Positions 1 to 23,100 are shown, counted from the first letter of the stretch. The stretch is DNA of 64,000 nt from Prorocentrum cordatum (GCA_963575745.1 CAUYUJ010000300.1:1-64000), one strand, 5' to 3'. Numbers and translations are program-made. Notes: a model not told the origin generated them from the letters alone.

Positions 1-789
1 TCCTCCTCCTTCTCCCCCTCCTGCTCTTGCTCCTCCTCCTGCTTCTACTCCTGCATCTCCTCCTTTGATGCTGCTCCTCTTCCCCTGCCCCTCCTCCTCC
101 TCCTCCTCCTCCTCCTCCTCCTCCTCCTCCTCCTCCGTGGCGGGCCAGGTGGCGCGTGCCCGCCCCCCCGGCCGCAGGGGGCGCGCGCTGTGGCGCGCCT
201 CCGCCGCGGGGGGCGGGGCGGGGGGATGAATTCTCGGGGCGGGGCCCCAGAGAGGGGGGCTCCTCCTCCTCCTCCTCCTCCTCCTCCTCCTCCTCCTCCT
301 CCTCCTCCTCCTCCTCCACCCCTTCTCTTGGGGGGGGGGGGGGGGGCGAATTCTCGAGGCGGGGCCCCAGGGGTCCGGGCCTCGTGAGGGAGCTTGCGGC
401 GGGCGCGGCGGGCGCGGCGGGAGTGGCGAACAGCGACGGGCCTTGAGCGGCTCTGCCCTTGCTCCTGCTGCTCCGCCCGGTGCGGGATTTTCCACGCTCT
501 CCTCGTCGTCCTCCTCCGCCACCTCCCTCGTCACCCACTCAGCCTTGCTTCGAGCCATGCCACTTATCCTCGTGCTCCTCTTGTGCTGCACCCCTCCCAG
601 ACCCCACCTGCATCATCACAAGCCCTGTTTCCTTCTGCTCCTTCCTCCATGCCCCTTTCTTGCTCCTCGCTCCTCGCTCTTCCCTCCTCCCCACCCCTAC
701 CCTGCTGACCTCATTTCATTGTTTCGGTTCTTCCAGATCGAACCGCGTTCTCGACGCGACGATGTCGGCTGTGGCCGTGCTTTTCTATG

Positions 790-960
790 CCATGCTTTGC
801 CGTACTATACCATGCATCGCGCACTCTTTCGGGATCATTGCCCAGCTCGACATCCGACTGTGCGAATCGAGAGGAGGTCTGCGCAATGGCAGCTACGGGA
901 TTGGAGGGAGGGGTAGGACGTCAGACATGACGCTTGCGCACCTAGATTGCCCTACCTCCT
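790..960. repeat. Dispersed repeat of about 170 bp, second copy at about 59120-59280
   Basis: Both sites share 'ctttcgggatcattgccc..ctcgacatccgactgtgcga...ggagggaggggtagga..tcaga.atgacgc...cgcacctag'. Confidence 0.8.
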
Positions 961-1329
961 CTATCTATCCCTCCTCCTCCTCCTCCTCCTCCTGCTCCTC
1001 CTCTTCCCTCGCCTGTCCACCCCCCTCCCTCCTCGCCGCAGCCGCGCCGCGCCCGAGCGGCCCCTCCGTGCGTGGGCCTGCCCGAGCCTTCCCGAAGCAG
1101 CCTTCGGAACGGCGATGCTATGGGGCCCCGCCCGCCACCGAGCAGCCACGGTGCCGTCGAGAGACGGCTGCGCCAATCATGGCGCAGCCGTGGGAGAGGC
1201 GCACGCAGAGGGGCCAGGACGTCTTCCCTTCCTGCCGTGCTCTCTTTCTCCGCGTCCCCCTCTCCCTCCTCCTTCCGGCAAGCGCCGGTGATGCCTCCCA
1301 GCACGCCGGCATCGAAGCGCAGGGGCCCG

Positions 1330-2600: not shown

Positions 2601-3902
2601 CAGGCGTGTCACCCGTATTTTAGGCCAAGCGTTTCTGACGGTCAGTGCAAATGGGCAATATTGTGAAGGAGGTATGCACCACCCCGAGCGAGAACGGCCA
2701 AGGGTATTGATTCGTTATGGGAGAGAGGCCATTGACCAGGAGCGCCTATGTAAGTACGGCTTGCAAAATGCGAGCAGCCTCGTGTTGTGTGTTCTCATCG
2801 GCACGTGAGCGCAAGAGAGCAGTCCCACATCAATCCCTCCTCACCGCGAGCCCTCGGCCCCGACCTCGTCTCCGCCCACCCCGAGAAGCCTTCCGACAGG
2901 TCGTGGCCCCTCAGCAGGAGGCAGGAAAATTGAGGCCTGGAAATCTCGTAGAATGACCCTGGCCGAAATTGCCCCCGGGTTGTCGCTACTTTTTGGTGTT
3001 CCCGGAGCCCTGTGCCTCCCTTCTTCCATCTTTCCCCCAGCCCCCCACGCGGCCGCCTTCCGCCTTCCTCTCCCTCTTGTGCCGCTGGACAATTCGTGTT
3101 CTGTGCCCTGGACTAGTTGAGCGCGTGCGGATTGCCTCTGCCGCGCTGCGACGGAGCCCTCTGGGCCTCGTGAGGGGTGCCCTGGAGGTCCTCTGGGCCT
3201 TCTTGGGGTCATCTCGGGCCGGGGTCCCGTAGGATGTCTTCGTGAGAACAATCGGGGACGAATGCAGCCGTATCGGGAAGCTACTGAGCCCGATTTCGCC
3301 CAGGATCGAGCCAGATGAAGCGGGATTGCACTAACCTGAGCCTGATGATAGGACGGGTTCGCATGGGTGACATCCCAGCGCCGACGCTGAACTCAACCTA
3401 GCAGGAGCTGCAACCCACAAAAGTGGCGCTGGAAACTGCAGGACCCACGGTCGCACGGGATCGCCGATGCAGGAAGAGGAGGAGGAGGCGGCGGAGGAGG
3501 CGGAGGAGGGGGAGGAGGAGGCGGAGGAGGAGGAGGGGAACGAGGAGGAGGAGGATGAGGAGGAGGAGGCGGAGGAGGAGGAGGAGGAGGCGGAGGAGGA
3601 CCATCGGAGGGGAGGAGGAGGCGGCGGAGGAGGAGGCGGAGGCGGAGGGGGAGGAGGAGGAGGAGGAGGAGGAGGAGGAGGAGGAGGAGGAGGAGGAGGC
3701 GGAGGAGGAGGAGGAGGAGGAGGGCCATCGGACCCACGGTGGCACGGGATCGCCGATGCACCGCCGAGGCGTCGGCCTCCGCCGGGATATGGAGAACAGC
3801 CGACTGCACGTCGCGCCTCGGTGCCCCCAGCGAGGCGGTGCGCGCTCCGGAGGCCCCGCTCGCCTGCCTCGGGTCGCACGGAGGAGGGAGACAGCATAAG
3901 TG

Positions 3903-4060
3903 AAGGGGCCCTGGGACACAAAAATAAATACACACAAATAAAAATATTCCTCATATTTTCCCATATTTTATGAGGTTCTGTCTTCCCCCCACTTCCCATA
4001 TTTTCCTGTATTTTCTGAGGAATCGACGATTAATTGTGTCTGTGTGTTTTTTCCCTCCTG
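3903..4060. repeat. Dispersed AT-rich repeat family 'R1', the target of the YR retrotransposon. Other copies at about 6921-7083, 39509-39660, 41833-41877 (partial), 52294-52455, 53058-53205, and split at 11651-11686/19831-19960
   Basis: Conserved 'gggacacacaaataaatacacacaaataaa..attccccatattttcccatat...gaatcgacgattaattgtgtctgtgtg'. Confidence 0.9.
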
Positions 4061-6720: not shown

Positions 6721-8109
6721 TGCACCCCGACGCGTGCCGCGGCGAAGGCCCCGAGGCGCCCCGGCCCTCTCAGAGCTTCAGCCCCGAAGGGGCGCCCCGC
6801 GGCTCCGCGGTCGGTCCGCGGCGGCGCCCCTCGCCGCGGGGCCGTCCGCCAGCTCCATGGACACCTCCCGCAGCGTCGAGATGCTGCCCCTGATGAGAGG
6901 CTGCAGTCAGCCAGGATACTGAAGGGTCCCTGGGACACACAAATAAATACACACACATAAAAAGATTCCCCCTATTTTTCCCATATGTTCTGTTTTTTTG
7001 TCTTCCCCCCCACTTCCCATATTGTCGCATATTTTCTGGGGAATCGACGATTAATTGGGTCTGTGTGTTTTTTCCCCTCCTGAGGATACAGTCGACCAGG
7101 ATACAGTCGGGGCGCTGACTTAAGGAAGCGCGCGCAAAGGTTCTTGACACCGCCTCGATCGTTCAACCTTGAACCGATCGCGGCACCGATCGTTCAAGGT
7201 TGAATTCCGTTGGGCCCTGTGGCGTCAACGTGCCCCTCGGTGCTTCCTCGTCGTTCCATCGTGCGGAGTTCAACCTTGAAAGTCTTCGCCGGCGTCGCCA
7301 GCGCGCCATCGACGCGCCGCGGAACTGCACTGAAGCCACGCACCCAGGGACAGTGAATGACCGTTCGGCCCCCTCACTCTGATTCATCCTTGTCCTTGTT
7401 CCATCGGGGAAACCGAAGGCTTGGGTTCGGAGAACTTGGGTTGGCCTGGCGAAGCCGTCAGGAAAATGACGAGACCCGGTCTGACATTTGACGCGAGCTC
7501 CCGCTGCGCACATCCCACGAAAACTGGATCGCCCAAATCCAGGACGGGCTGGGCTCGTCGAAAAGCGGCGGCGAACCAGAGTCCCTGCGAACTCGAGCCT
7601 TGCGTCATGCTGTTCCCAGCGCACTTCAGGACCACATCCCAGACAAAATTTCAAGCACCCAGAGAAATATCGAAACGGTGTCGAACGAGTATCGCCTCCC
7701 AGGGACCGATACGTGACCCCCCCCCCAAGTTTTCGGAACTTTCTTGGTGCTCGGAACTACATCTGGTGATCAAGGCTAAAGTGGGTTGGAACATCATAAG
7801 CCTTACGTTTCACCGACCCCAGCCCCCCGAGGCCGTAGGCGACCCGAGGAGGGGGATGAGGACGAGGAGGAGGAAGAGGAGGAGGAGGAGGAGGAGGAGG
7901 AGGAGGAGGAGGAAGACGAGGAGGAGAAGGAGGAGGAGGAGGAGGAGGAGGAGGAGGAGGAGGAGGAGGGGGAGAAGGAGGAGGGGAGAAGGAGGAGGTG
8001 GAGGAGGAGGAGAGGAGGAGGAGGAGGAGGAGGAAGGAGGAGGAAGAGGGGCGGAGGAGGAGAGGAGGGAGGAGGAGGAGGAGGAGGGGGAGGAGGAGGA
8101 GGAGGAGTT

Positions 8110-9007
8110 TTAAACTCGCGTGCTCTCGCCCGTGAGTGAATGCCCCTGGTCTCGGCACCCCGCGCAGGCGACGCGCCCGAGGCAGGGTGGGCCAGCGGCC
8201 TCAGCTCACGGCGCTTCTACTAGCCGTTCTCCAGCGCTGGCTGACGGAGATTCTGCAGCACCATCTTGCGAGCACGCCTGATGTGCTCGTCGACCCGCTC
8301 CTCGCGGCAGGGCTGCGCCGTGCCGAGCTGCGCCGAGCCAGCACCGCCGCCGTCGGCCACCGCCAGGGCCTCCTGGCCTGCCGAGGAGGCGTGGGCCGCC
8401 GCCGCCACCGCGGCCCCGCCGCGGGGCGCGGCCGCTCCTCCACCGTCGCCGAGGGGCTGGGTGGCGCTCATGCCCTTGTCCTTGCCCACCGACGCGGGCG
8501 CGCCCGCGCGGCTCGTGCGCCGCCCCGCGCTGGACGGCGGGCGGCTCGGCTGCGCAGGCACAGCTCGTCCGCCCAGCTGTCGTCCTCCATCATGGCCTCG
8601 GCGACCTCCTCGCCCTCCACGTCCATTTCCTTCGTCTCTGCAGCAGTGGCTCCTCGCCGACGTCGACCGCGCCGTCGCCTCCGCCGCGGCGCCGCGGCGC
8701 CAGGCGGCAGGCCACCCGCGGGATCATCAGGGGCTCGATCATGCTCGGCGTCAGGGGGACGATGAGGAGCAGCAGCACGGCGTCGCGAAGCCTCCAGCTC
8801 CGCCGCCGCCGCCCTGCACAGGCCCTCGGCGGCGCGCAACATGCGGCAAGCCGCAGGCGCTCCGGGGGCCAGCCCCGCCGCCGAATGGGCCGCCGACGTG
8901 GCACCTCGGGCGGCCGCGATTGCAGCGCGGGGATCAGCAGCCGGCATCACCCGAACCGAGGCGGGCGGCGCGGCCCGGCGACACCAGGTTCGAGCGAAAT
9001 GGTTACT
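8110..9007 (-). mobile_element. Retrocopy headed by a degenerate DinoSL, encoding an Ala/Arg-rich protein (family shared with 28440-29238)
   Basis: The minus strand begins TAGTAACCATTTCGCTCGAA (degenerate SL). The ORF reads MPAADPRAAIAAARGATSAAHSAAGLA...RMLRAAEGLCRAAAAEL. (GAG)n tracts flank both sides. Confidence 0.55.
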
Positions 9008-10905
9008 AGGAGGAGAGGAGGGGAGGAGGGGAGGAGGAGGGGAGGAGGGGAGGAGGAGGAGGGGAGGAGGAGGAGGAGAGGAGGAGGAGGAGGAGGACCC
9101 GCCCGACCTGCCGCTGGGGTCGTCGCTGCGCGACTCCACGCCGGAGGGCCGAGAGACCTCCGGGCCGCGCGCGGGGAGGCGGCGCGTCGGGAAGGGGTGG
9201 CCTCGAGGCGCGCGCCTGGCCAGCCGCCGCTTGCTACGGTAGTGAGGGGCAACGATCGGGGGGGACTGGCACAGGGGGGATGTCTCTCCTCCTCCTCTCC
9301 TCCTCCTCCTCCTCCTCCCCTCCTCTCTTCCTCCTTCCTCCTCCTCCTCCTCCTCCTCCTCCTCCTCCTCCTCCTCCTCCTCCTCCTCCTCTCCTATCTT
9401 CATCCTCCTCCTCCCCTCCTCCTCCCTCCCCCCTCCCCCTCCCCATCCTCATCTCCTCCTCCTCCCCTCTCCTCCTCCTCCTCCTCACCTCCTCCTCCTC
9501 CTCCTCCTCCTCCTGCTCGCCCTGCGCCTCCTCCCCCCTCCTCCTCCCATGCGGGGCAACGATAGAGGGGGACTGGCCTAGGGGTGGACACATCGACCTG
9601 GAATCGGCGATACATCGCCGATAGATCGGCGATAGGCCTCCGATAGCGAATCCGCACCTTCCTGGGCAGGTTGGGGCTGTCGGGCCCCTATCGGCGATCA
9701 ATGGGCGCTATGGGGTCGATGCATCCCACCCTATGCCTGTCCCCCCCTATCGTTGCCCCCGAAGTCGGGGCCCGACCACAAGGAACCTTGCGCAAGAAAC
9801 CCAACCCAGAGACTCCGGAGACCCCAGGACGTCCATAGAGATGTTTGGTGTGGGAACACGTCGCGCTGTCCATCGCACAGCCATCGAAGCCTAGGAAGCC
9901 CAGGGCACCCTGGAGGCAAGCAGGGTGCTTCTTGGCATGGATCCCCGCTGTATGCCCGGGCCTGCCCCTGGGGAGGCAGGGCTTCCGCCGGCGGAGGCAG
10001 CCCTCGTTTGGCTTCCGCCGCCCTTCTGCCAAGGAAGAGACGACAAAATTCCTTCGGCCCTTGATAGCGAGGCTTTTCCTTGAGTGCCTCACGTGTTGCT
10101 CCCCCCTTGGGGAAAACAAGAAGGTACCGATGCCGCTGCTCCCGTGACGTCTGCCGGGGTGCGCTCCGACCATAAATCTCGAGGCGACCTCAGCCGTGGC
10201 GACGAGAGGCAGCAGCACGTGGACCCTGCCCCTTCGTACCAGATTTCTGCAGAAGCGGCTGGGGCGCAGAGAGGTCTGCGGAGGCCTGCAGCCAGGTGAG
10301 CCCCGGCGGGGGTGTCCGATACCCCAGGAGCCAAATGGATCCGCAGGGGCAGCCTTCGCCACCGGTCGCAGAGACGAGGGCCTCGGAAGACCAGAAATGC
10401 GAAACCGAGTAGATGGGGTCGAAGGATCGCGCCGCATCGCCAATACATCGCCGATGCATCGTCGATGCATCGGCGACCTCGGCGATGCATCGGTGCCGTC
10501 GGCGTGGTGAACCACGGCCTCGGCATCGGCGATGCGTCGCCGATGCGGCGATGCGGCGCGATCCTCCGACCCCAGCTGCTCGGACCCCATCTGGGAGGCC
10601 CAGAGTTAAGCAGGGACCGACCGTCCCGGCATTCCTATAGTCCTACCACGAAGTGTACTTAGAACCCCAAACTGTTCTAACAGCAAAAACCATATTCTTA
10701 GAACATAAGCCCGATGTGAGAAAACAAAACAATCTCCGCCAGGTGGAAGCCACGAGAGGTTCTCAGAACATTTCGTGGGAACCACGACAGGTTCTTAGGA
10801 CATTGCTTGGCAGGGCTATAGGCGAGCCAGGATGCTTCGCCACCGCTTGACAGAAGGCAGCGGCACCCGTGCCTCTGAGCCTGCCCCAGGGTCTGCCCCC
10901 CCTTG

Positions 10906-11286
10906 GGGGCCACATGCGAGCCCTACCCCTACCCCCCGCGATTTCGGAGGGGGAGGGTGGGGTTTCCTTCGCTCGGGAGCTCCCGGGCGAAGCGAGCCCC
11001 ATCTAAGGAACCCTAAATAAGGAACGAGGCCCCTGTTCCCATACATTAAACTTCGGTATCCCTTGGAAAAAATACGGAAAACCTCAGGCACAGCGTAAAG
11101 CAACCAAGGAACACGGAGCCCCTCCCCAACGAAAAGGGCTCCTTCTTCAGGGCCCCGCCTGCACCTCCCCCGATTTCGGAGGGGGAGGGTGGGGTTCCCT
11201 TCGCTCGGGAGCTCCCGGGCGAAGTGAACCCCACCCACCCCCTCCGAAATCGTGGGGGGGTAGGGGTAGGGCTCGCATGTGGCCCC
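10906..11286. mobile_element. Long-TIR MITE-like element containing a nested repeat (about 11003-11157)
   Basis: Inverted repeat of about 55 bp: 'ggggccacatgcgagccctacccctacccccc..gatttcggaggggg' / 'cccctccgaaatc..ggggggtaggggtagggctcgcatgtggcccc'. Confidence 0.7.
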
Positions 11287-11686
11287 CTTCATACGGATGC
11301 AAGGGCCTTGGACGCCCAGTTCGAAGCTTCTCGAGCGGGGCGCGGCCCGCGAGAGCGGCGAAGGGTGGACCGAGGAGGCAAGGATGCAAGGGTACCCTTG
11401 GGAAGGCTGCCCATCCTTACTATGCGGGTTGACTGTACTAGAGACGTTGCTGGCTACACGCAAGCTTTTTTTGGCAAACGAAGCCACAAACCACGGAGCG
11501 CAGATCCCCCTCCCCTCGCGGGGGCTGCAGGCGACCCCTTGATACAGGCACGCTGCAACGCCAAAGCAGGCATGCGCAGTATCGGCCGGCCGGGTAAACG
11601 TCGCCGGGCTCCAAGGGGAGGAGGGAGAAACGGGAGGGGTCTTTCTTTGAAGAGGCCCTGGGACACACAAATAAATACACACAAAT

Positions 11687-12003
11687 GTGTGCAGGCGGGG
11701 GTCAGAGCGGTAGCTCATAGGGAATAGAGGGGAGCCGCAACATGCAATGATCACTCACACTGGGCGTTGCCCCTTCTTACTCCCTCTACTCGTTGGCCAA
11801 AGCTGTTGACAGAGCTTCGAGTGCCTCGAGACAACGGCACCAGCATGTGCGAGCCACAGGGCCCGCCCCGAGGCAACGGCAGAATTCGCACCTCGAGTGC
11901 ACCACCGTCGTGCAACGACCGGGGTCAGAACGCCGCCCCAAGCGGGCCTCGAGGGGGAGCAGACTCGCACCACGCTCTGCCCAGAAGCCCGAGAAGAAGA
12001 AGC
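11687..12003 (-). repeat. Split direct repeat B2 (3' end of element)
   Basis: About 317 bp, differing from 12176-12492 by roughly 9 substitutions counted by eye. Confidence 0.95.
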
Positions 12004-12090
12004 GAAGCTCTCGCGAGACGTTGAACGGGCAAGAGCGGCCAGGCAGAGAAGGAGCCTGGACGGCATGGCACAGGGCGGACTGCGGGCGGG

Positions 12091-12173
12091 CCACAAAGGC
12101 TGCCATGCATTCTGATGCGGCCAACGTTCGCTCATTACCCCTCCGCCCACACATTGACCGTAAACGTGTTCAT
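12091..12173 (-). repeat. Split direct repeat A2
   Basis: 83 bp identical to 19748-19830 (ccacaaaggctgcc...aaacgtgttcat). Confidence 0.95.
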
Positions 12174-12175
12174 GT

Positions 12176-12492
12176 GTGTGCAGGCGGGGGTCAGAGCGGT
12201 AGCTCATAGGGAATAAAGGGGAGCCACAACATGCAATGATCACTCACACTGGGCGTTGCCCCTTCTTACTCCCTCTATTCGTTGGCCAAAGCTGTTGACA
12301 GAGCTTCGAGTGCCTCGAGACAACGGCACCAGCATGTGCGAGCCACAGGGCTCGCCCCGAGGCCACGGCAGAATTCGCACCTCGAGCGCACCACCGTCGT
12401 GCAACGACCGGGGTCAGAACGCCGTCCCAAGAGGGCCTCGAGGGGGAGCAGACTCGCACCACGCTGTGCCCAGAAGCCCGAGAAGAAGAAGC
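12176..12492 (-). repeat. Split direct repeat B1
   Basis: Direct copy of 11687-12003, abutting A2 through 'ttcAT-gt-gtgtgcagg'. Confidence 0.95.
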
Positions 12493-12565
12493 TCTCCACT
12501 CCAAGAACACCCAAAAGCTCTCCAATGTGTTCCGACATGTGGCCGAAGGCCGCCCATAACATTCT

Positions 12566-13340
12566 TCAGAGTCGCACCTGGCCTGGATTTGAGGCCCCTT
12601 GCAACAGTATGCCCGAGCGCGGGCAATCAAGGTCCTGAGAAAGACTGGAGCGAGGAACGGGTGGCGGCAGAAAACGCAAGTCGGCCAAAAATCGCGGCCC
12701 CACCTGAATGTAAATCTTGCTGTCTTTATGAGCTCCAATGACCTCGGAGCACACTTTAGGCAAGTCGCCTGTCAGCAAGTATTCATGCGTAGCACCGCCT
12801 CTGCGCATGCACAGACTAGGCCGAGATGCGCGCGCCCGAATCTCGCAGGCCAGTGCGAACAAGCAAATGAAAGGCGCGAGGAGACGAGGGCCATGAACGC
12901 CCGTCACGATGCAGCTGCATACGGATGACCGCTCCCTCAAGTGGGTCACCTAGTGTCATCGTCTCTCGTGCCCCCTTTTTGACAGGCTGTCCTTGTCTAT
13001 GTCAACGACATTGTGTTCTGCCGCAAGGCTAGAGCTGAAATCGCGCGCGCCAGAGTACTGCTGGCGCGTCCTCAACAGGTGCTGCACCAAACCCAGTGTA
13101 ACGTTAGCGTGGCTCCTGGTGGCACCCTTGGCCCACAGCAAGGTAAACTTGTAATGCGACATCCGTGTCTCCCCGTTGAACGGCAACGGCAGATTCATGG
13201 CGTTAAGATGGCCGACGAACTGCTGGCTGCTCGACGGAATCTAGCAAGAGCGGCAGCGCCGATCTGGGCATCTTGCAGCTTCCCCAGGCCAGCTCTGGCC
13301 GTGCGCCTGTCGGCGGGGCTAGACCGCTTCCCCTTCCTTC
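12566..13340 (-). pseudogene. Tyrosine recombinase of the retrotransposon, frameshifted and probably internally deleted
   Basis: N-terminal RRTARAGLGKLQDAQIGAAALARFRRA and LWAKGATRSHANVTLGLVQHLL. C-terminal box 'LCMRRGGATHEYLLTGDLPKVC' at about 12755-12820 (compare HSLRRGGAT). 'RGHWSS/IKTAR/IYIQ' with the catalytic Tyr is spread over frames at about 12700-12748. Confidence 0.75.
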
Positions 13341-16300
13341 AGGCGCGACGGCGCGTCCGCGGGGTTCCGAGCAGATGAGGTGAACCCGAATGCTGCCCGC
13401 GCGCCCATCGCCAGCTCCCAGGCCGAGAAGCTGCGCACAACCTTGTTGAGCTGACTGCTGCTTGAGCGGCGCTTTGAGAGCGCACCGATGTTGACCATGC
13501 TGTCGAGGAGGTGCAAGAAGACTCGCTGCTGTCGGCCCAACGATCGAGCACGCCATCGAATCATCATCAGCGCGCCCTGGCACTCCAGTACATTGATATG
13601 TTCAGGAACATCCCACGCCAGCTGTCCTGCCTCACGCCATTGCCAAAGACCTGCATCAATCTCTTGCCGAGGGAAAACTTTGCTGAGCTCCGCAGAGCTC
13701 CCGTCGCCACGGAGGTCCGCACCATTGCTGTGGCACGCCATCACAAGGCCCATCACCAGCCTACGCGAGACATCCGCATCACGCCAGGACGTAGCATCGC
13801 GTTTGGCCAGCTCTGCAAGCAGCACATCTGCATGACATGCTGCGGACTGACAGTGGCAGACCAGCTTGGCACCGCGCAGGTCCTCCAGGCGGCGAAGCAG
13901 CTCGGGCTGCTTGCGCAGCCATCCAGCAAACAGCGCCACCGGGTCCTCGCAGGAGCAGCTCGGGCCCACTGCGAACGGGTTGCCGAAACACGACGGGGTG
14001 AGGCCCCAGCGCCATGAGCCGCGGCCGACGTAGACGAGCCTGTTGGCCGCCGCCGGCGCCGCTGCGGCGGGTTCCTCGCCCGCCTGCTGCCGCTCGGCCG
14101 GTGCGGCTGCGCTGCAGGCCACCAGCTCGTCGCGGACCTCCGCGTCGACCTCCACGCGGCTGCGTCGCAGCGAGGTGGCGTCGCCAGCCCGCAGCTTCCG
14201 CCCGCCAGCCCAGGCCCGAGCGCTCTCGCGCAGCTCGGAGAAGGGCGGCGCCGCCACCAGCAGCCCAGCCGCAACAGCCCAGTGCGCCAGCAGCCACGCC
14301 ACCACCTCGCACTGGAACGAGTTGCCGATCAGCGAACGCCTCAGCCCCTCGTACTTGCTGGGCTCGGCATTCGCCGCACTGCTGGTCATGCAGGGCACGG
14401 TGTGGCCTTCGGCGAAGCCCATCAGCTTCTCCCTCATCGCCGCGTCAGGAGGCGCGATCCGTCCGTCAGGCCAGTGAATGCACCACCTGTCACGGAACTG
14501 GCATGGCGGCGCCGCAAAGGCCGCCTCCTCCCAGCGCGTCAGCTCAGCAGCCGTGCACTCCCCGATGCCCGCGGGCCTGGGGCGCGGCTGCGTGCGCGGC
14601 GTCCAGCGAACGAACGTAGGGAGGGGCTCGCCACCCTCCGCTCCAGGGCCGCGCGCGCCAGCCGGCAGCCACTCCTCGAGCGGCGGGCGCTCCACCTCCA
14701 GCGACACGCGGCGCAGGCGGCGAGAGGCGCCGTCCTTGGTCAGTACCATCACCGTCTTAGCTTCGTACGACGGCAGCAGGTCCCAGGACGGCCAGTAGAG
14801 ACGAGGACGCCTCACCCAGCCAATGTCCCCAGCCTCAACCTCCAAAGGGATCCGCTCGAACAACCCGCTGAGGAGGTGAAGGGCGTCGGACTCTGCCATT
14901 GATGCCACATTTTCCCCAAGGAAGTCAACGCTCACCTCGGGCATGGCCGCCCGCAGGCCTCGGATGACCCTCACCATGTGATCGACAAGCGAGGCGCGCG
15001 AGTCCGACGAGCCCTTGCGGTCGACGTTCAAGCTCGTGTAGATCTGGCATGGGAAGCCGCCGATGACCACCACGCGGGTGATGCGGCCACGGGCCCGCAG
15101 CAGACCAGCCAGGGCAGCAGGGTCAGCAAATGTAACATCTCCGAGGTGCTGCGTGCCAGGGTAAGCGCGCCGCGCGACGCGAACCGCCTGCGGGTCCACC
15201 TCGAACGACAGGTGCGCCGCTGGTACCAGGCCCAGTATCTCGAAGGCTCGGCGTCCGCCACCGATACCATCAAAGACGGTGATCAGGGCGGTCTCCTCCT
15301 CGCAGGCGGCGTTGGCGGGCCGCTGGCGCCTGCCCGCAACGACGCGGCCGCGCTCGGTAAGCGCCGTGCTGTGCACCGCGGCCCCAGCGGCCTCCGACGC
15401 GTCCGACGCCGTCACCAGGTGATCGACATCAAGCGTCATGTCGGCCACGCAGAGCCCCGACAGGGCTAGGCGCATCAGCAAGTCCTCGATCACGCTCACG
15501 CTGAAGCGGCCTCCACAGCGCGGGTCGTTGAGCCACTTCCAGGTGTAAGCGAAGCTCGCGGCCAGCGGGCGGCGGGAGCAGTGCACGCGAGCCCAGCGCC
15601 CAAGAAGAATACGTATCAATTGCATGCTGGCTCGCCTCTTGCCCAGAACCCAGAGCGTGAGGCTGGCCATCTCATTGATGTATCCTGCAGGCGGCCGACG
15701 GACACCCTCAACAAGCTCGCCCAGAGTGGTGGCGCGCACCACGCGGTGCAGGTCCTTGCCCGGGGGGCCAGGGGACCCTGCTGCCTCGTAGCAGACTCGA
15801 GCGTCAGTCAGCAGCTCGGGGACCGTCCCGCGTAACTTGTCGGCCTCAGATTTGTCGACGATCTCGGCGATCTCTAAGTTATCGATGTACGCCATCCAAG
15901 CAGGCGGGCAGGGCTTCTCCGCGCCAAGCGGCAGGCGGCGGCGCCGGGTAATCTCGCAGCTGGGGCTCAGGCCGCGAGGCACCGCGCCGCTGCGGCGCGG
16001 CATGTTGCGATGCAGGTGAGTCGTGACCCCCGCCGCGCTGATCCAGCCCATGCCGATTACCCGCAGGCAGATGTGGGTAGCGCCGCCGTCCTTGAGGCCC
16101 AGTAGGCGCGACGGCACGGGCGGCCCGATCACCATGTGCGGCCACCGCGGCGGCGGTGCACGGAAGACGTAGAAGAAGGCCTTCCTGTCGGCACCGCTCC
16201 ACAGCAAGTCCTCGGACTCCGTCAAGACCAGGCCGTTCAGCTGGCTCATCGTCGGCATCTCGGGCGTGTCGCCAACGATGCACTCCTGGCAGGCGTTCGA

Positions 16301-16342
16301 CGGGATCAGATTGGTGATGAGCCTGAGCACGGGCATCACCAT
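13319..16342 (-). CDS. Open 1007-aa part of Pol: reverse transcriptase, RNase H (N), C5 DNA methyltransferase, DUF4326-like, RNase H (C)
   Basis: RT: LRLITNL, SGADRKAFFYVF, VIGMGWISA, YIDNL. RNase H: VTASDASEAAGA ... HINVLE ... LLDSMV ... NPADAPSR. DNMT: VFDGIGGG, SFEVD, LGDV, GGFPCQ, GENVASM, RRPRLYW, REKLMGF, LIGNSF. DUF4326: YVGR..FGNPF..LVCHC..CHADVL. Confidence 0.9.
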   Translation of the reverse strand: MVMPVLRLITNLIPSNACQECIVGDTPEMPTMSQLNGLVLTESEDLLWSGADRKAFFYVFRAPPPRWPHMVIGPPVPSRLLGLKDGGATHICLRVIGMGWISAAGVTTHLHRNMPRRSGAVPRGLSPSCEITRRRRLPLGAEKPCPPAWMAYIDNLEIAEIVDKSEADKLRGTVPELLTDARVCYEAAGSPGPPGKDLHRVVRATTLGELVEGVRRPPAGYINEMASLTLWVLGKRRASMQLIRILLGRWARVHCSRRPLAASFAYTWKWLNDPRCGGRFSVSVIEDLLMRLALSGLCVADMTLDVDHLVTASDASEAAGAAVHSTALTERGRVVAGRRQRPANAACEEETALITVFDGIGGGRRAFEILGLVPAAHLSFEVDPQAVRVARRAYPGTQHLGDVTFADPAALAGLLRARGRITRVVVIGGFPCQIYTSLNVDRKGSSDSRASLVDHMVRVIRGLRAAMPEVSVDFLGENVASMAESDALHLLSGLFERIPLEVEAGDIGWVRRPRLYWPSWDLLPSYEAKTVMVLTKDGASRRLRRVSLEVERPPLEEWLPAGARGPGAEGGEPLPTFVRWTPRTQPRPRPAGIGECTAAELTRWEEAAFAAPPCQFRDRWCIHWPDGRIAPPDAAMREKLMGFAEGHTVPCMTSSAANAEPSKYEGLRRSLIGNSFQCEVVAWLLAHWAVAAGLLVAAPPFSELRESARAWAGGRKLRAGDATSLRRSRVEVDAEVRDELVACSAAAPAERQQAGEEPAAAAPAAANRLVYVGRGSWRWGLTPSCFGNPFAVGPSCSCEDPVALFAGWLRKQPELLRRLEDLRGAKLVCHCQSAACHADVLLAELAKRDATSWRDADVSRRLVMGLVMACHSNGADLRGDGSSAELSKVFPRQEIDAGLWQWREAGQLAWDVPEHINVLECQGALMMIRWRARSLGRQQRVFLHLLDSMVNIGALSKRRSSSSQLNKVVRSFSAWELAMGARAAFGFTSSARNPADAPSRLKEGEAV
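13805..14040 (-). other. DUF4326-like domain within Pol
   Basis: LVYVGRGSWRWGLTPSCFGNPFAVG...LEDLRGAKLVCHCQSAACHADVLLAEL matches the YIGR/WGNPF/L.GK.L.CWC/CHGDVL pattern as recalled. Confidence 0.8.
14285..15290 (-). other. C5-cytosine DNA methyltransferase domain within Pol
   Basis: Motif I FDGIGG, motif IV GFPCQ (catalytic Cys), motif VI ENV, motif VIII RxRLYW, motif IX (REKLMGF) and motif X GNS, all in order and in frame. Confidence 0.92.
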
Positions 16343-17914
16343 CCCGTCCTGGCACTAGACAGGGGCGTCGTGGGCCTTCGGAACGCCGAAGGCTCCGATC
16401 AGCAGCGGCGACCCATCCCGGCACGCGATGTCAGACGCGGAGATCGGGCCGACCATCCCGCGCTCATGAAGGGCCCCAGCATTGCGATGCCACTCGTCTT
16501 CCGGGGCCCAAACCCGCGCCGAAGTCGGCGCCGCGCGGCGCAGCGCAGGCGGCAGCAGCACCAGCCCAGGGTCCAGCAATGCGTCCCGCACGAAGCCCGT
16601 CGCGACGTCGGCCGCCTCAATCGAGGCCGCAACACCAGGCGGCGGTAAGCCGTCCAGCACCTGCTCCAGGGTCAGCTTGTGAGGCGCGGTGATCTCGGCG
16701 CCACCGTAGCCGATCTTGCGGTCCTTCAGGCGGTCCTCCCAGTTGAGCTCCGCAGGCAGGCTGGTCTCGATGCGCGTCGCCAGGTACAGGCGGCGCCCAG
16801 GGCCGCCAAGGCTGCCCGCTGAGCAGCGTTCGGGCGCCTGCGGCAATGGCGCGCGAACTCCAGCGAGCGAAAGCCTGCGTCCCAGTTGAGCGCCAGCACC
16901 GTGACAACCAGCCTGCAGTGGAATGCCTCCCAGTTCAGGTCGCTAAGGTCGTCGCCGTCGCGCACGACGTCGGTCTTCACGATGGTAGGGTACGGTAACG
17001 GCAGCAAGTCACGTTGCAGCCGACCTCCCATGGTGGCCATATGCTCGCGCAGCTGAGGTTTGAGGGGGTCGCGGACGTAGCGACCGAACGAACCGGGGAA
17101 GTCCCTGACGAGGTTGAGCAAGATCGGGCCCACCCCATAGGGCTCATGGAGCAAATCACCAGCAGCGCCAGCAAGTTCTCTCCAGTCCTCCAGAGGATCG
17201 TGTCGAGGAAAATCATCATCAGCGGTGGGAGATGGCGATCCCAGAGGGGCAGCAGCGCAGTGGTCAGGTAGCGAACGAGACGGCGAGGCCCCAGGCGGTC
17301 CGCGCGGCGCAGCAGCCTGCAGAGGAGCGGCCGCTGCAGCCCGGGCGTCAGCAGCAGGGGCATCGTCACCATGCGCTCTCACCGCGCCGCCGCCGGGGGG
17401 CCAGCCCTGCGGCCGCCAGGCGGGCGGGGCCGCGAGCCGTTGGCTCTCCCTGCGTTGCGTCCCCTGCCGCCGCGGCGTCTCGGGCGACCGCGCCCTGCTC
17501 CCTGGGGCGCCGCCGCCGCCGCTGCTGGCTCGTCCTGCCTGAAGGTGTGGCGCTCGGGGCTCCCCGCCAGCACAACTCGGCGCGGGTGAGGGCTGTCCCC
17601 TCGGGGGGTCCGCTCCGCCTGAGGGGGCGGCGCCCGCGCGCGGGGGCCTCGGGGCGCTGCGGCGGGCCCCTCCTCGGCCCGAGGCGCTGCGGCTGGCGAC
17701 CCTGGAGCGCGAGCGGGGCTGCCCCCTCGGAGCGGGAAGTAGCGGAACCGTCCGCGGCCTCGACCCTTGCCCTTCCCGCGCGAGAGTTCCCGCGCTGGCT
17801 GAGGCGCGGGTCGAGAGGGGGAGCGCGGCCGTTGGCCCTCCCGCGCCCCCCCCTCGGGTCACCCGCGCCCCTGGCCGCGGCCGAACGCCCCGAAGGCTCC
17901 GCGGCTCTTGGCAT
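16343..17914 (-). pseudogene. 5' part of Pol, broken by frameshifts and an in-frame TAG at 16355-16357
   Basis: ATG at 17914 overlaps the gag stop. Pieces RDLLPLPYP..VLALNW..PNAAQRAAL, IGYGGAEITAPHKLTLEQVLDGLPP and LLIGAFGVPK lead in frame into the RT ORF across one stop codon. Confidence 0.75.
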
Positions 17915-19451
17915 CCTCCAAGCGCCTCCGCAGCAGCGCCGAGCGCCGCGCCAGATCCTGCCCGTCCATCGACGCCTGCGACGGCCTCACGTCTGGGACA
18001 ATCTCGAACTCGCTCGCAACCTGCCAGCCCGCGTCCGACAGAGAGAGCTCTAGCGCCTTGAACCTCTGCGTCAACACGTCGCTCAACTGCGGCAGAGCGC
18101 CGCTCTCCAACTGGTCCAGCGCTGTCGCCAAGGTCTGGGGCTCGCGCACCGTGTTGATCCGCAGCTGGGACACGGGGTGGTGGCCGAACACGATGGCCTG
18201 CAAGTAGCCGACCACCTTCGGCGTCGTCTCGGAACCGTCCGCCCCCTCCCGCAGGCCCATGACGCAGGCGATGTTCTGCATCGCCTCGTCGTAGAGCGCG
18301 CCAGGCTGTCTCTCCGCCAGCAGCCGTGCGCTGCCGCCGCGGGAGGGGGCATCTCGAAAACGCGGCTCGCCTTCGCCGTCGCTGCGGCTGCCGGACTCGC
18401 TGCGAGCCCGTCGCCTGCCGCGGCCAGCCACGCCGCGGCCGCCGCCGCCTCCGACCGCAAGCGCGCGGGCAGCTGCTGCGGCTGCCGGGCGGTCGGCGGC
18501 GGGCCCGCCAGGGATGGGAGCGGGGCCGCCTCGACCAGCTCCACCACCACGGCCGCCGAAGGCGCTCGGCCGCACCCAAGGCTCCACCAGGCCGCGCGTC
18601 GAGCGCAGCCGAAGCCACTCCACGTGCAGGACGGCCCGCCCTGCCTGCGCAGGCTCGCCACACCGCGCGGGCCCCTGCGCGCAGAGGTGCAGCAGCCCAG
18701 CAGGACCGCCGCCGCGCGGATGGAAGGCGCCGTCAAAGCGCATCGCCTCAGCAGGCAGGGGCGCGCCTCTGAACTGCGCGCTCAGGTACTGGCCTCCAGC
18801 ACCGGGCGCGCCGACCTCGTCGATCTCGAACAGTGCGGTCCCACTGATCGCCCCCGCCACGTCGTGGGTCGGCAGCTCGACGGCCAGGCCCTGGCGCCAG
18901 TTGGCCCCGACGAGGGCGGCTGCCTGCGTCCAGGCCCCGTCGACGAGCCCGCCAAGCTGCACTCCTGCAGCTGGGGCGACCGCGCCTCCCAACACGCCGA
19001 GGGCAGCGCCCGGTCCTGCGGGCCCCGCGCCAGGCGGCGCGCCCGCGCCTCCAGCTCCGCCAGCGCTAGCAGCGGCCAGCGCGCCAAGCAGCGCCACTCC
19101 GACGCCGCCCCCGCCGCCGCCGCCAGCGCCGTCGCCAGGCGCCCCGAGGGCAGGGGGGGGCGCGCCTGCGGCGCCCGCGCCAAGGGCTCCAGGCAAGCCA
19201 GGGAAGCCGCCGAGCCCGGGCACCACTGGCGCACCAGCCGCGCCGCCTCCAGCGCCTCCGCCAGCCGCACCTCCAGCCGCGGGCGCGAGGCCGCTTCCGA
19301 GGCCGGCGGGCGCACCTGCCGCTCCAGCTGCCGCGCCTGCGCGCCCGCGACCGCGCCGTCCTCCGCCATGTCCAGCGCCTCGGCCGCGGGCGGCAGCGGG
19401 AAGCACAGGAAGAGCCTTCGCCTTCGCCTTGGCCTTGGCCTTAGGCGGCAT
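17859..19451 (-). CDS. Gag-like ORF1 of the YR retrotransposon
   Basis: Open frame from ATG (MPPKAKAKAKAKA), Gly/Ala-rich N-terminus, a CAQGPARC..H motif and a helical C-terminus (TLATALDQL..SDVLTQRFKALE..WQVASEFEIVP). It lies directly upstream of pol. Confidence 0.7.
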   Translation of the reverse strand: MPPKAKAKAKAKALPVLPAAARGRGAGHGGGRRGRGRAGAAAGAAGAPAGLGSGLAPAAGGAAGGGAGGGAAGAPVVPGLGGFPGLPGALGAGAAGAPPPALGAPGDGAGGGGGGGVGVALLGALAAASAGGAGGAGAPPGAGPAGPGAALGVLGGAVAPAAGVQLGGLVDGAWTQAAALVGANWRQGLAVELPTHDVAGAISGTALFEIDEVGAPGAGGQYLSAQFRGAPLPAEAMRFDGAFHPRGGGPAGLLHLCAQGPARCGEPAQAGRAVLHVEWLRLRSTRGLVEPWVRPSAFGGRGGGAGRGGPAPIPGGPAADRPAAAAAARALAVGGGGGRGVAGRGRRRARSESGSRSDGEGEPRFRDAPSRGGSARLLAERQPGALYDEAMQNIACVMGLREGADGSETTPKVVGYLQAIVFGHHPVSQLRINTVREPQTLATALDQLESGALPQLSDVLTQRFKALELSLSDAGWQVASEFEIVPDVRPSQASMDGQDLARRSALLRRRLEDAKSRGAFGAFGRGQGRG

Positions 19452-19725
19452 CGGGCGACAAGGTCGACAGAGCCGTGATCTGCGCCGCCAACAGCCGCGC
19501 CTGCTCAGCGAGCAGCGCCCGCTCCTGCGGTGCCAGCCGCGCCTCGCGCGCCCCCTGCCGCGCCAGCGCGAGGAGGTAGCACAACTCGCACACCTCCAGG
19601 AGCGCGCCGCCCTCCGCGAGGGCCAGACTCTCGCCCTCGGCGAGCCGCCCGGTGCACCAGCCGCAGATCCGAGGCTGCTGGGCACGCGGGGCAGCAAAGC
19701 GCGCGGTGGCGCAAGCAGGGAGCAT
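19441..19725 (-). CDS. Small upstream ORF (94 aa) with two CxxC pairs, putative zinc-binding
   Basis: ATG 22 nt downstream of A1, motifs CGWC ... CELC, and a TAA overlapping the start of gag. Confidence 0.45.
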   Translation of the reverse strand: MLPACATARFAAPRAQQPRICGWCTGRLAEGESLALAEGGALLEVCELCYLLALARQGAREARLAPQERALLAEQARLLAAQITALSTLSPDAA

Positions 19726-19747
19726 CCCAGGCCCTCAAGGCCCTGAT

Positions 19748-19830
19748 CCACAAAGGCTGCCATGCATTCTGATGCGGCCAACGTTCGCTCATTACCCCTC
19801 CGCCCACACATTGACCGTAAACGTGTTCAT
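19748..19830 (-). repeat. Split direct repeat A1 (5' end of element)
   Basis: Identical to 12091-12173. Confidence 0.95.
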
Positions 19831-19974
19831 AACAGGATTCCCCATATTTTCCCATATTTGTATGTTTTTTGTCTTCCCCCCCACTTCCTATATTTTTCCA
19901 CATTTCTTTGGGAATCGACGATTCATTGTGTCTGTGTGTTTCTTTCTCTCCTTATTCTTACGCGGCTGCATGTA

Positions 19975-20153: not shown

Positions 20154-23100
20154 AGGGGGGAAACAAGCCTACCTCGCTTTTGACCACCCTCGCTTCCAAG
20201 AGATACCAAACGATGCCAAACTGCAGCCTGGACTGGTCAGGCCGCTTGACGAGGAGGCGCGTGGTATGGCTTGGTTTTTCCTGGAAGCGAAAGCGGGGTA
20301 GGTAATTCACGCTCTGACTCTTTTCCGCCCCCGAACGTAAGAACGACCCTGGACAGGCGGGATCTGTCGTGCGCGACTTTCGCGGGGGCCGCGGGGAGGC
20401 CGACTCCGAAGCGCGCAGGCCGCCGCCGCCGCGTCGCATCCGGGCCACAGGGGGGGGCCCGTGTGCCCGCAGAGGAGGAGGAGGAAGAGGAGAAGAAGCA
20501 GATGGAGGAAGAGGAGGAGGAGGAGGAGGAGGCGGAGGAGGAGGAGAAAGACGAGGCAGAGGAGGAGAGGGAGGAGACGAACGATGAGGAGGAGGAGAAC
20601 GAGGAGCACCAGGGGTCACTCCAGCGAAAGGTCGCTCTTACGTATACAATTGAAGTAGGAAGGCGCTTGAAGTAGATCGGGATCGCAGAATTCTCACCAC
20701 GAATTCCCTATTCGGCCACATTCCCTATTCAGCCACGCGCCCATGGACAATGAATGACCGTTCGGCCCCCTCACTCCGACTAATACTTTCAACGACCAGC
20801 GTGTACGTATAGCCGGCAATGGACCACTTCACTAGGGCCGGTTTTGCGCCCTGAGCTGTTTACGGCCCCGAAGCCCGGAGAGGGCCCCCAGAGGCCCAAA
20901 ACGGCCAAACACACTTCAAAACAAACTGCGAAAAACGGCCGAAAGCGGCCCAAAATGCTCCAATTTTGTTCGGAGCGTCCCCCTCCCCCCCCGCGAAGGG
21001 CAGCGCTGGTTGCAAATCCACGCGCCTTGATCCATGTTTGCGATTCCTTGCAATCCTTGCTCCTCCCCCCAACCCCCCACCCCCCACCCCGGAGGAGGAA
21101 GAGGAGGAGGAGGAGGCGGAGGAGGAGGAGGAGGACGAGGAGGAGGAGGAGGAGGAGGAGGAGGAGGAGGGGAGGGGAGGAGGAGGAGGAGGGGGAGGAG
21201 GGGGAGGAGGAGGAGGGGAGGAGGAGGAGGCGGAGGAGGAGGAGGAGGAGGAGGAGGAGGAGGAGGAGGAGGAGGAGGAGGAGGGAGGAGGAGGAGGAGG
21301 AGGAGGACCCCTCCATCAGCGCCTGCCCTCCCGAGGGCCAGAGCGAACGGCGGCGGCGGCCGAGGGCCTGCGACGCCCGCGCGCGGCCGAGCTGCGGCTG
21401 CGAGGCCGGGCGGCCAAGGGACGGCCGCCCGGGCGCCAACGGCCAGGTGGAGCACCCGTCCGCCGCGCCGGCGGCGGCGGGCGGGGCCGCCAGCGAGGCC
21501 CGCGAGGACTCGCGGCTCGGGGCGGCCCGGGAGCTGCCCGCCGCGTCCTCTGGAGGGGCAGGCCTCAGGGCCCAGGTCCTCCTCCGCCTCCTGCTCCTCC
21601 TCCTGCTCCTCCTCCTTCTCCTCCTCAACCTTCTTCTCCTCCTCCTCCTCCTCCTCCTCCTCCTCCTCCTCCTCCTTCTCCTTCCTGTGGGCCTGCAGCT
21701 GTCCGAATGCTGCTGTACGCCCTCAGCTGTGGCTCCCTGGTGAGGCCCTTGCGCGGACTCTTGATCCGATCCGATCCGATCCTCCTCCTCCTCCTCGTCC
21801 TCCTCCTCGTCCTCCTCCTCGTCCTCCTCCTCGTCGTCCTCCTCCTCCTCCTCCTCCTCCTCCTCCTCCTCCTCCCTCTCCTCCTCCCCCAAACGGGGAG
21901 GCGTACGATGCGCGACAAGGATGCAGGCCCCTTGGACTCCCGTGCTGAAGCTTTTTCGAAAGCGACGGGCCATCGAAAGTAGTCTAGGATGGACCAAGGA
22001 GGCACGGATGCACGGATGCAAGGGTACCCTCGGGAAGGTTACCCATTCTTACCATCGCTTTCGACTGTACGGCAATCGTGCTACCATAGGGAGCGCAAAA
22101 CAGGGAACGAAGGGGCGTCTCTGCCCACGGCGTGCCCAGGACACAACAGGTTCCGCGACAGACATCTAAGGAACGGTCCGAAAACCAAAGCCCGTGCCAA
22201 ACCCAAAGCGGTCCTTAATTTCAGCGTCTTGACTGCACGGCAGGTTCGCGTCGTGCCGACACCAGCGATGGCTCCTGACACCGCGGGGATCGTTCAAGCT
22301 TGAACGGTCGGCGGATCGCCAGATCGAGGAGGAGGAGGAGGAGGAAGGAGGAGGAGGAGGAGGAAGGAGGAGGACGAGGAGGAGGAAGGAGGAGGAGGAG
22401 GACGAGGAGGACGAGGAGGACGAGGAGGAAAAAGGAGGAGGAGGAGGAGGAGGGAGGAGGAGGAGAAGGAGGAGGAAGGAGGAGGACGAGGAGGTTCCAC
22501 ATCGACCGATTCTGGGCCACTGGCGGCGTTCTGCCTCGAGCGCCCGCAGCGGTGGTCGCCGCCGCGATGGCACGGCACGACCTTCCTCCAGCACGGTCGG
22601 GGCAAGGCCTCAACGAGCGCGTGGTTCTGTTGGCGCGGCACTGCTGCTGTGTCGAGCTCGCCGGGAGACGCAGACGTGTCAAGCTGCAGCCGACGGTCAA
22701 AGGACCATGGCAGGGAATAGCAGCCGCCACAAAAGAAGAGTTCGGCGCATTCCGAGATCATGCGAATGAGCTCGAGCGCGCGCAAGCGTACACCCTGCGA
22801 AATGCTTAAGAAATCATGGGTTAAGAAATTCATAGTCTCAGAAATTGAATAAAACCCAGAACTTCTATCAACATCTGGGGATTTACATTGAAAAGTTAAG
22901 AATAATCGAGATTCTGGACGAAAACTTAGGTTTTCTTAAGCATCGCCTAAGGTGTAGAGTAGTTTTGTCCAGCTGTGCAACGTTACGGTTGGGCGACGCT
23001 GCGGCATCGTAGCCGCGGCCAGAGCGCAAACCGACAGCCCAGGCCCTTTCTCCGGAGGCCTCTGGCCGCAGACAAGGCACCCCTGACGAGGAGCACTCCG

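Follow-up and report, generated by a model that had tools for sequence, protein, structure and literature searches.

A Dnmt3-like methyltransferase and a DUF4326 domain predicted to interrupt the RNase H fold of a dinoflagellate DIRS-like retrotransposon

Retrotransposons of the DIRS type that carry a cytosine methyltransferase have been described in dinoflagellates: the SymbioDIRS-Dnmt3 elements of Symbiodinium encode a Dnmt3-type methyltransferase in Pol, together with reverse transcriptase (RT) and RNase H (de Mendoza 2018, PMC5890265). For the retrotransposon DNA methyltransferases (DNMTs) of such relatives, the same paper reports de novo CG methylation. Here we describe a related element from Prorocentrum cordatum, which lies on the minus strand of a 64,000-nucleotide stretch of genomic DNA (GCA_963575745.1, CAUYUJ010000300.1:1-64000; hereafter the window) and occupies positions 11687..19830, about 8.1 kb. 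We interpret it as a defective, DIRS-like copy of the SymbioDIRS-Dnmt3 family with a single-polypeptide Pol, in which a cassette of ~570 residues is lodged in the strand 2-3 hairpin of RNase H and consists of a methyltransferase, a linker and a DUF4326 domain, the methyltransferase being an old component and DUF4326 a later one. We put the probability of this reading at roughly 0.85.

The original prediction, made from the DNA of the window, had pointed to methyltransferase-bearing DIRS elements from dinoflagellates, and the paper on Symbiodinium does describe them. The window element has in common with SymbioDIRS-Dnmt3 a dinoflagellate host, a Dnmt3-type enzyme in Pol, a tyrosine recombinase (in the window a likely remnant), a lack of CpG depletion and the repeat order A, coding, B, A, B (PMC5890265). 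It differs in its host, Prorocentrum, and in the DUF4326 domain found between the methyltransferase and the remaining RNase H, a feature of 7 of 41 aligned members of the window family. Judging from protein similarity, the window element belongs to the same family as SymbioDIRS-Dnmt3, a placement made through a Cladocopium protein and not through the paper's own sequences: 69% of the query is covered by P0023 (Cladocopium sp. Y103, E 1.2e-91, ~30% identity), a protein that has the same domain order, aligns over RT, methyltransferase and RNase H, and carries its methyltransferase at the insertion point seen in the window.

Elements of the classical DIRS1 group are likewise tyrosine-recombinase retrotransposons with an accessory DNA methyltransferase in Pol, but theirs is a Dam-like N6-adenine enzyme (PMC5890265, PMC6338049), structurally unrelated to C5 enzymes (PMC5890265). 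In phages and giant viruses, DUF4326 domains are reported as fusions to components of DNA replication and of restriction-modification systems (PMC7824862, PMC9503650). The window domain shares its Pfam family and invariant residues with these stand-alone and fused forms, and its methyltransferase neighbour fits the pattern of fusion to restriction-modification parts; unlike them, it belongs to the Pol of a eukaryotic retrotransposon and lies within RNase H. The Dam-like domain of the DIRS1 group follows RNase H and is not known to be nested in it. Nesting of a whole extra domain in an RNase H-like fold that still assembles is known from DDE transposases such as hAT/Hermes and the P element, where the insertions are in transposase/integrase folds and lie near the last catalytic residue. 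The window Pol differs from these in that the type 1 RNase H of a retroelement is predicted to be broken in its strand 2-3 hairpin by two enzymatic domains.

The main open reading frame (ORF) of Pol runs from stop to stop over 13319..16354 on the minus strand and comprises 1011 codons, by which residues are numbered below. The 1007-residue open frame first reported at 13319-16342 lies within it, and is not the whole of Pol: an in-frame TAG within RT (16355..16357), at a position where relatives have V or R, splits the main ORF from 195 further codons in the same frame, which hold the severed N-terminal part of Pol and RT (16358..16942) and align in translation to the relatives P0004, P0008 and P0038. 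We considered and rejected CpG deamination as the origin of this stop, the codon being TAG and the relatives having V or R. A public gene model identical to the Pol locus, P0002, bypasses the TAG by an invented intron, a gene-calling artefact. All of the motifs listed in the original prediction are found in the ORF and in the order given: Y-I-D-N (156-159) in RT; SDAS (317-320) in the first part of RNase H; FDGIGGG (361-367), GFPCQ (433-437), ENV (481-483), RRPRLYW (515-521) and GNS (677-679) in the methyltransferase; and HINVLE (919-924), LLDS (949-952) and NPADAPSR (997-1004) in the remainder of RNase H. The proposed domain order of RT, RNase H strands 1-2, a complete Dnmt3-like methyltransferase, DUF4326 and the remaining RNase H also holds, the reading frame is open across both cassette junctions, and the gap put at about 570 residues measures 571 between strand 2, which ends at residue 332, and strand 3, which begins at 904.

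We built an AlphaFold2 model of the 1011 residues with a 41-row alignment of relatives (mean pLDDT 85.1, pTM 0.86) and compared it by VIA-align with 48,161 solved chains; the model ranges quoted for these matches state the first and last aligned residue only. Three RNase H1 chains aligned across the cassette: 4e19_A (Z 14.4, rmsd 2.6, 124/133 residues aligned, model 310..1009), 3u3g_D (Z 14.3, rmsd 2.7, 129/140 over chain residues 1..140, model 310..1010) and the human enzyme 2qk9_A (Z 12.3, rmsd 3.5, 123/153, model 307..1009). As 129 residues align to 3u3g_D and only 116 are present in 895-1010, the C-terminal piece cannot supply them all. In the model, the N-terminal piece (residues 308-333; 15356..15433, minus strand, as are all coordinates of element features below) contains strand 1 (315-319, with Asp318) and strand 2 (323-332), both ahead of the cassette. 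Behind the cassette, a return helix (residues 860-872, 13739..13777; helix 862-871 in the model) packs on the N-terminal piece, and is followed by the C-terminal piece (residues 895-1008, 13331..13672), where the order is strand 3, helix A with Glu924, strand 4 with Asp951, helices, strand 5 and a last helix with Asp1000. Only three strands of at least three residues are found behind the cassette (904-913, 944-950 and 986-991, with helices between them), so that, as modelled, the C-terminal segment does not hold a complete RNase H by itself.

The original prediction had asked whether the two halves fold together, and they are predicted to do so by the AlphaFold2 model, by the RNase H1 alignments and by a two-chain prediction, in which residues 303-346 and 860-1011 were given as separate chains to a different program, with no alignments, in three runs and with three controls. 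All three runs scored 0.81, and the best control scored 0.01; in a benchmark, a score of 0.81 was attained by 51 of 78 solved complexes and by 2 of 108 mismatched pairs. The runs shared at least 92% of their contacts, with a partner pLDDT of at least 76. The closest contacts correspond to two pairings of the RNase H sheet, strand 1 with strand 4 (314-317 to 945-950) and strand 2 with strand 3 (327-333 to 904-907), and the interface also took in residues 861-868 and 871 of the return helix. In this prediction the two pieces resemble parts of an RNase H that complement each other, a result that says nothing of binding in the cell. The pieces at 315-332 and 904-1008 are predicted to form an ordinary RNase H1 fold, and this includes four acidic residues, D318, E924, D951 and D1000, which we take to be the catalytic positions from their motif likeness. 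The window copy has all four. Across the 41 aligned sequences, D318 and A319 are invariant, and at least 90% retain E924, D951 and D1000; in a wider set of 127 relatives holding RT, DNMT and C-terminal RNase H blocks, an [SAT]DA[SC] motif is present in 12/12 of those with DUF4326 and 113/115 of those without.

A different history could be read from the same ORF, in which a new RNase H, complete in itself, was acquired as the C-terminal segment and the SDAS strand is the vestige of an older, degenerated one, as in the retroviral connection domain. Many relatives have a conserved G-S-D-V-R-L shortly ahead of strand 3, which can be read as an alternative first strand with its own Asp, and G878 is kept in at least 90% of the 41 rows. 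The Asp of this motif is variable (NGADLRG in the window, RGGAVTW in P0018 and P0019), whereas D318 is invariant; residues 873-903 have no long strand in the model and a pLDDT of 48-71; the RNase H1 chains align over 124-129 residues from model position 310; and the pairing of 314-317 with 945-950 in the two-chain prediction argues against a vestigial SDAS strand. We consider such a replacement very improbable. We give equally little credence to the suggestion that RNase H is catalytically dead throughout the family and serves as a scaffold for the methyltransferase and DUF4326, with a host RNase H removing the RNA. The missing RNase_H match in Pfam would fit this, and an insertion of 570 residues might disturb substrate binding; the four acidic residues, present in the window copy and kept in at least 90% of the 41 relatives, are unexpected for a mere scaffold. 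An interrupted fold with its acidic residues retained is the reading we prefer.

The first of the enclosed domains is a Dnmt3-like C5 cytosine methyltransferase (residues 346-700, 14255..15319), identified by Pfam, phmmer, profile and fold comparison. PF00145 (DNA_methylase) matches residues 358-495 at 30.4 bits against a cut-off of 22 (E 3.5e-7), and the best match in the Protein Data Bank (PDB) by phmmer is DNMT3A (E 3.9e-6, residues 355-523), a match that a profile of 41 relatives strengthens to E 4.4e-26. The methyltransferase motifs are all present, which we take to be I (FxGxG), IV (PC), VI (ENV), VIII (RxR) and X (GN). By the model, the fold is complete: DNMT3B chain 6u8p_A aligns over 280/291 residues (Z 27.6, rmsd 3.0, model 346..700). 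An Ala/Glu-rich, flexible linker follows (residues 701-769, 14048..14254); it has a pLDDT of 47-74 and is variable or missing in relatives.

The methyltransferase turned out to be a constant part of the family. A full scan of 1.84 billion representative proteins returned 6457 proteins at E<=0.001 and 332 at E<=1e-30. By their NCBI names, P0002 and 15 further matches belong to Prorocentrum cordatum. A hidden Markov model (HMM) census of domain blocks covered 211 stored relatives, including the best 150 representatives of the scan, and an alignment of 41 rows was made. All 41 rows have the SDAS strand, then the methyltransferase, then W-x-W, HINxLE, xDS and NPADxPSR. The methyltransferase occupies the same insertion point in 40/40 aligned relatives, degenerate in a few (for example P0175 and P0055), and more than 100 relatives, a Cladocopium protein among them, have it at that place. 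SDAS and HINxLE are separated by 602 residues in the window copy, against medians of 539 in 10 relatives with DUF4326 and 471 in 106 that lack the domain. Neither the 41 rows nor the census of 211 proteins contained a relative free of the methyltransferase. Three of the 211 match the RT model without the DNMT model: P0152 retains a degenerate block of ~330 residues at the methyltransferase site, and P0205 and P0124 are fragments, breaking off ahead of the methyltransferase or where it begins. A search for longer proteins with the C-terminal RNase H piece returned 11 proteins, all from P. cordatum. From the alignments, we conclude that the insertion of the methyltransferase is old and family-wide.

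This bears on whether the cassette might be a one-off secondary insertion, or an artefact of assembly or gene modelling peculiar to the window copy. That copy is degenerate, and public gene models for the family are unreliable, as P0002 skips a stop and P0183 is called Calmodulin. Against an artefact, the frame is open across both junctions, and the domain order of the cassette recurs in 27/211 stored proteins (the scrambled P0123 aside), among them P0038 at 44% identity; against a one-off event, the methyltransferase stands at an identical point in all 40 aligned relatives. With the cassette shared by sister copies and distant relatives, this explanation has next to no chance of being correct. 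P0183 bears its 'Calmodulin' annotation despite having RT, DNMT, DUF and RNase H blocks. The relatives P0038, P0185, P0018, P0019, P0041 and P0053 are encoded on contigs of 5-8 kb, about the length of one whole element, and may be intact elements; those carrying P0038 measure 7.4-7.8 kb. Among sequencing runs, three of DNA contained 0.41, 0.11 and 0.06 of the sampled words, and none of RNA was listed as containing them.

The second enclosed domain, DUF4326 (residues 770-856, 13787..14047), with YVGRG, GNPF and CHC...CHADV, was identified by PF14216, by phrog_464 and by an alignment of homologues. PF14216 matches residues 772-846 at 53.1 bits against a cut-off of 25 (E 5.4e-14), and phrog_464 matches at E 2.5e-18. 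The window domain is 38-49% identical to 17 stand-alone homologues, which are 81-179 residues long, and all invariant columns (YVGR, GNP, C-x-C and CHADV) are shared in 18/18 rows, these homologues plus the window. In the literature covered, DUF4326 is enzymatic by prediction only: it has been assigned to the rhodanese-phosphatase superfamily, and is predicted only to connect NAD/ADP-ribose chemistry with DNA modification. Modelled alone, the domain has a pLDDT of 81.2, and its best VIA match is YbiA (Z 5.1, rmsd 4.9, 91 residues), the sole chain with Z>=5 among the 48,161, ahead of RapZ (Z 4.0) and NADAR entries (Z 3.5-3.8). Foldseek returned nothing for the model at E<=0.001, with dual-specificity phosphatases (TMq 0.35) among its weak rows. 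We treat the NADAR-like and phosphatase-like resemblances as hints and not as assignments.

Within the family, the DUF4326 block is present in 7 of the 41 aligned rows and in 27 of the 211 stored relatives. In proteins that also have the flanking blocks, its place is after the methyltransferase and ahead of the C-terminal RNase H piece, with the scrambled model P0123 as the sole exception. In a quick maximum-likelihood tree of the RT-methyltransferase part of the 41-row alignment, rooted at its midpoint, the seven rows with DUF4326 group together (SH-aLRT 98) and branch from within the rows that lack it; P0038 is the most distant carrier, at 44% identity. On this tree, the distribution is most simply explained if DUF4326 was gained once, after the methyltransferase insertion, in a subclade found in P. 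cordatum.

The RT (residues 1-300, 15455..16354) was recognised by fold matches to the enzymes of Ty3 (4ol8_A, Z 11.2, rmsd 4.6, 229/390 residues aligned, model 1..988), MMLV (8wus_E, Z 10.4, rmsd 4.8, 263/453, model 1..964) and HIV (6uir_A, Z 9.7, rmsd 3.7, 237/544, model 8..306). Its motif A has Asp56 and its motif C is the Y-I-D-N mentioned above, with Asp158 invariant in 41/41 aligned sequences. At motif C (residues 155-161, window 15872-15892), 33 of the 41 rows read Y-x-D-N and 8 read Y-x-D-D; the second Asp of the classical motif has been replaced in most of a family that has clearly multiplied. When the RT part was compared by language-model features, DNMT and DUF clusters aside, clusters bearing RVT_1 scored 0.91-0.92 with just 139-144 shared features, a weak lead. 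As models, then, the folds of RT, RNase H and methyltransferase are all supported.

Outside Pol, the element has the end structure of a DIRS-like retrotransposon. On the minus strand its parts run A1, gag-like region, Pol, recombinase remnant, B1, A2 and B2, so that the repeats fall in the order A, coding, B, A, B. The terminal repeat A1 (19748..19830, 83 nt) is 100% identical to A2 (12091..12173), and B1 (12175..12492, 318 nt) is 97.2% identical to B2 (11686..12003), which forms the 3' end of the element. The flanking segments 11648-11686 and 19829-19896 adjoin each other in a paralogous repeat at 3901-4004, which resembles an empty site and places the element ends at ~11687 and ~19830. Between A1 and Pol, a gag-like region in two frames (17859..19747) was recognised by its similarity to the N-terminal part of P0008, which maps to 19671-19450 (frame -2) and 18401-17955 (frame -3); the region matched no Pfam family at E<=1. 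Downstream of Pol lies what is likely a tyrosine recombinase ORF, now a remnant (12636..13318) that has acquired stops, changes frame and has lost an internal segment. The tail of P0004 maps here to 13046-13300 and 12636-13028 in different frames, with four stops in the remnant; the tail bears the motif LRRGGATHE, and the remnant contains RRGGATHEYLLTGDL. By language-model features, the named clusters nearest to the P0004 tail carry PF00589 (score 0.99), with 19 of 30 matches in a set with PF00589 alone and six more in a set that also has PF02899, which we take as a lead only.

A number of observations weigh against our interpretation. Pfam bore out the methyltransferase and DUF4326, both above their curated cut-offs, and left the RT and RNase H of the original prediction unmatched: no RVT_1, RNase_H or Phage_integrase match was found in the ORF at E<=1, nor in four relatives at E<=10. 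The P0004 tail gave no Phage_integrase match at E<=10 either, and when the 41-relative profile was compared by sequence with the PDB, only methyltransferases were found, with no RT or RNase H. The RT and RNase H calls therefore rest on fold and motifs, although the split of the domain and its divergence may mask RNase H from Pfam. All of the fold evidence is prediction, and the two-chain test can be passed through likeness to, or memory of, solved RNase H structures. As no methyltransferase-free relative was found, the uninterrupted ancestral hairpin is inferred from cellular RNase H1 alone. For the activity of the element, a Y-x-D-N motif C is unusual in an RT, and the window copy is dead because of the TAG in RT and the stops and deletion in the recombinase. 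The CpG observed/expected ratio is 1.00 in the element and 0.83-0.84 in its flanks, and by this measure the element has no deamination footprint of self-methylation; the value agrees with the report that SymbioDIRS, of the DIRS type, is without CpG depletion (PMC5890265). Finally, the DUF4326 model has no clear neighbour among solved structures.

In intact copies, the RT would synthesise cDNA and RNase H would strip away the template RNA, while a methyltransferase tethered to RNase H could methylate CG sites in the new DNA, as has been proposed for such elements (PMC5890265). The nested cassette might in this way couple RNA removal to methylation of the new DNA, as the original prediction had suggested. 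DUF4326 would probably be a small enzyme dependent on Cys and His that acts on a phosphate or ribose linked to a nucleotide or nucleic acid, and might serve DNA modification or the evasion of host defence; this is the least supported step. More tentatively, the methyltransferase and DUF4326 could make up a 'cDNA finishing' module, held at the nucleic-acid-binding hairpin of RNase H and modifying the DNA while RNA is being removed, with DUF4326 as a hitherto uncharacterised nucleic-acid- or nucleotide-processing enzyme that, for example, removes a phosphate- or ribose-linked adduct, and so aids C5 methylation or disarms a host defence based on NAD/ADP-ribose. We regard this last proposal as unlikely. 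If it were true, the retrotransposon would offer the first eukaryotic genetic context in which to assay DUF4326 activity.

Among the sources proposed for the unusual methylation seen in dinoflagellate genomes are retrotransposons that bear methyltransferases. Nesting within the RNase H fold, if correct, would tie the methyltransferase physically to the step that exposes the new DNA, and suggests, in concrete structural terms, how cDNA might be self-methylated. It would also show clearly that a small catalytic fold can accommodate a large insertion of two enzymes in one of its hairpins. The apparent single gain of DUF4326 beside a methyltransferase, with its invariant residues kept, marks a defined place to probe the role of this domain. 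The original prediction was aware of no characterisation of this exact architecture; a methyltransferase in a DIRS Pol has been published, while neither its nesting in RNase H nor a DUF4326 domain in a retroelement was found in the literature searched. The text of PMC5890265 does not contain 'split', 'DUF' or 'Prorocentrum', and its three supplement files do not contain 'DUF4326', a comparison that covered text and files. None of the titles and passages covered on DUF4326 has a retroelement or dinoflagellate context, and nothing relevant was found on Prorocentrum with DIRS elements or retrotransposon DNA methyltransferases. Two features alone go beyond print, the position of the methyltransferase within the RNase H fold and the addition of DUF4326.

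The surroundings of the element are themselves repetitive. It was inserted into a dispersed repeat, with 6956-7023, 39548-39616 and 52331-52398 matching the right flank at 84-87% identity. Long low-complexity tracts rich in GGA/GAG flank it at 9000-9550, 20450-21320 and 21540-21920, and produce spurious long open frames on both strands. Just beyond its 3' end lies a 96-nt palindrome (11164-11259, 89.6% identical to its own reverse complement), and an 82-nt direct repeat, with copies 88% identical, is found at 10920-11001 and 11152-11233.

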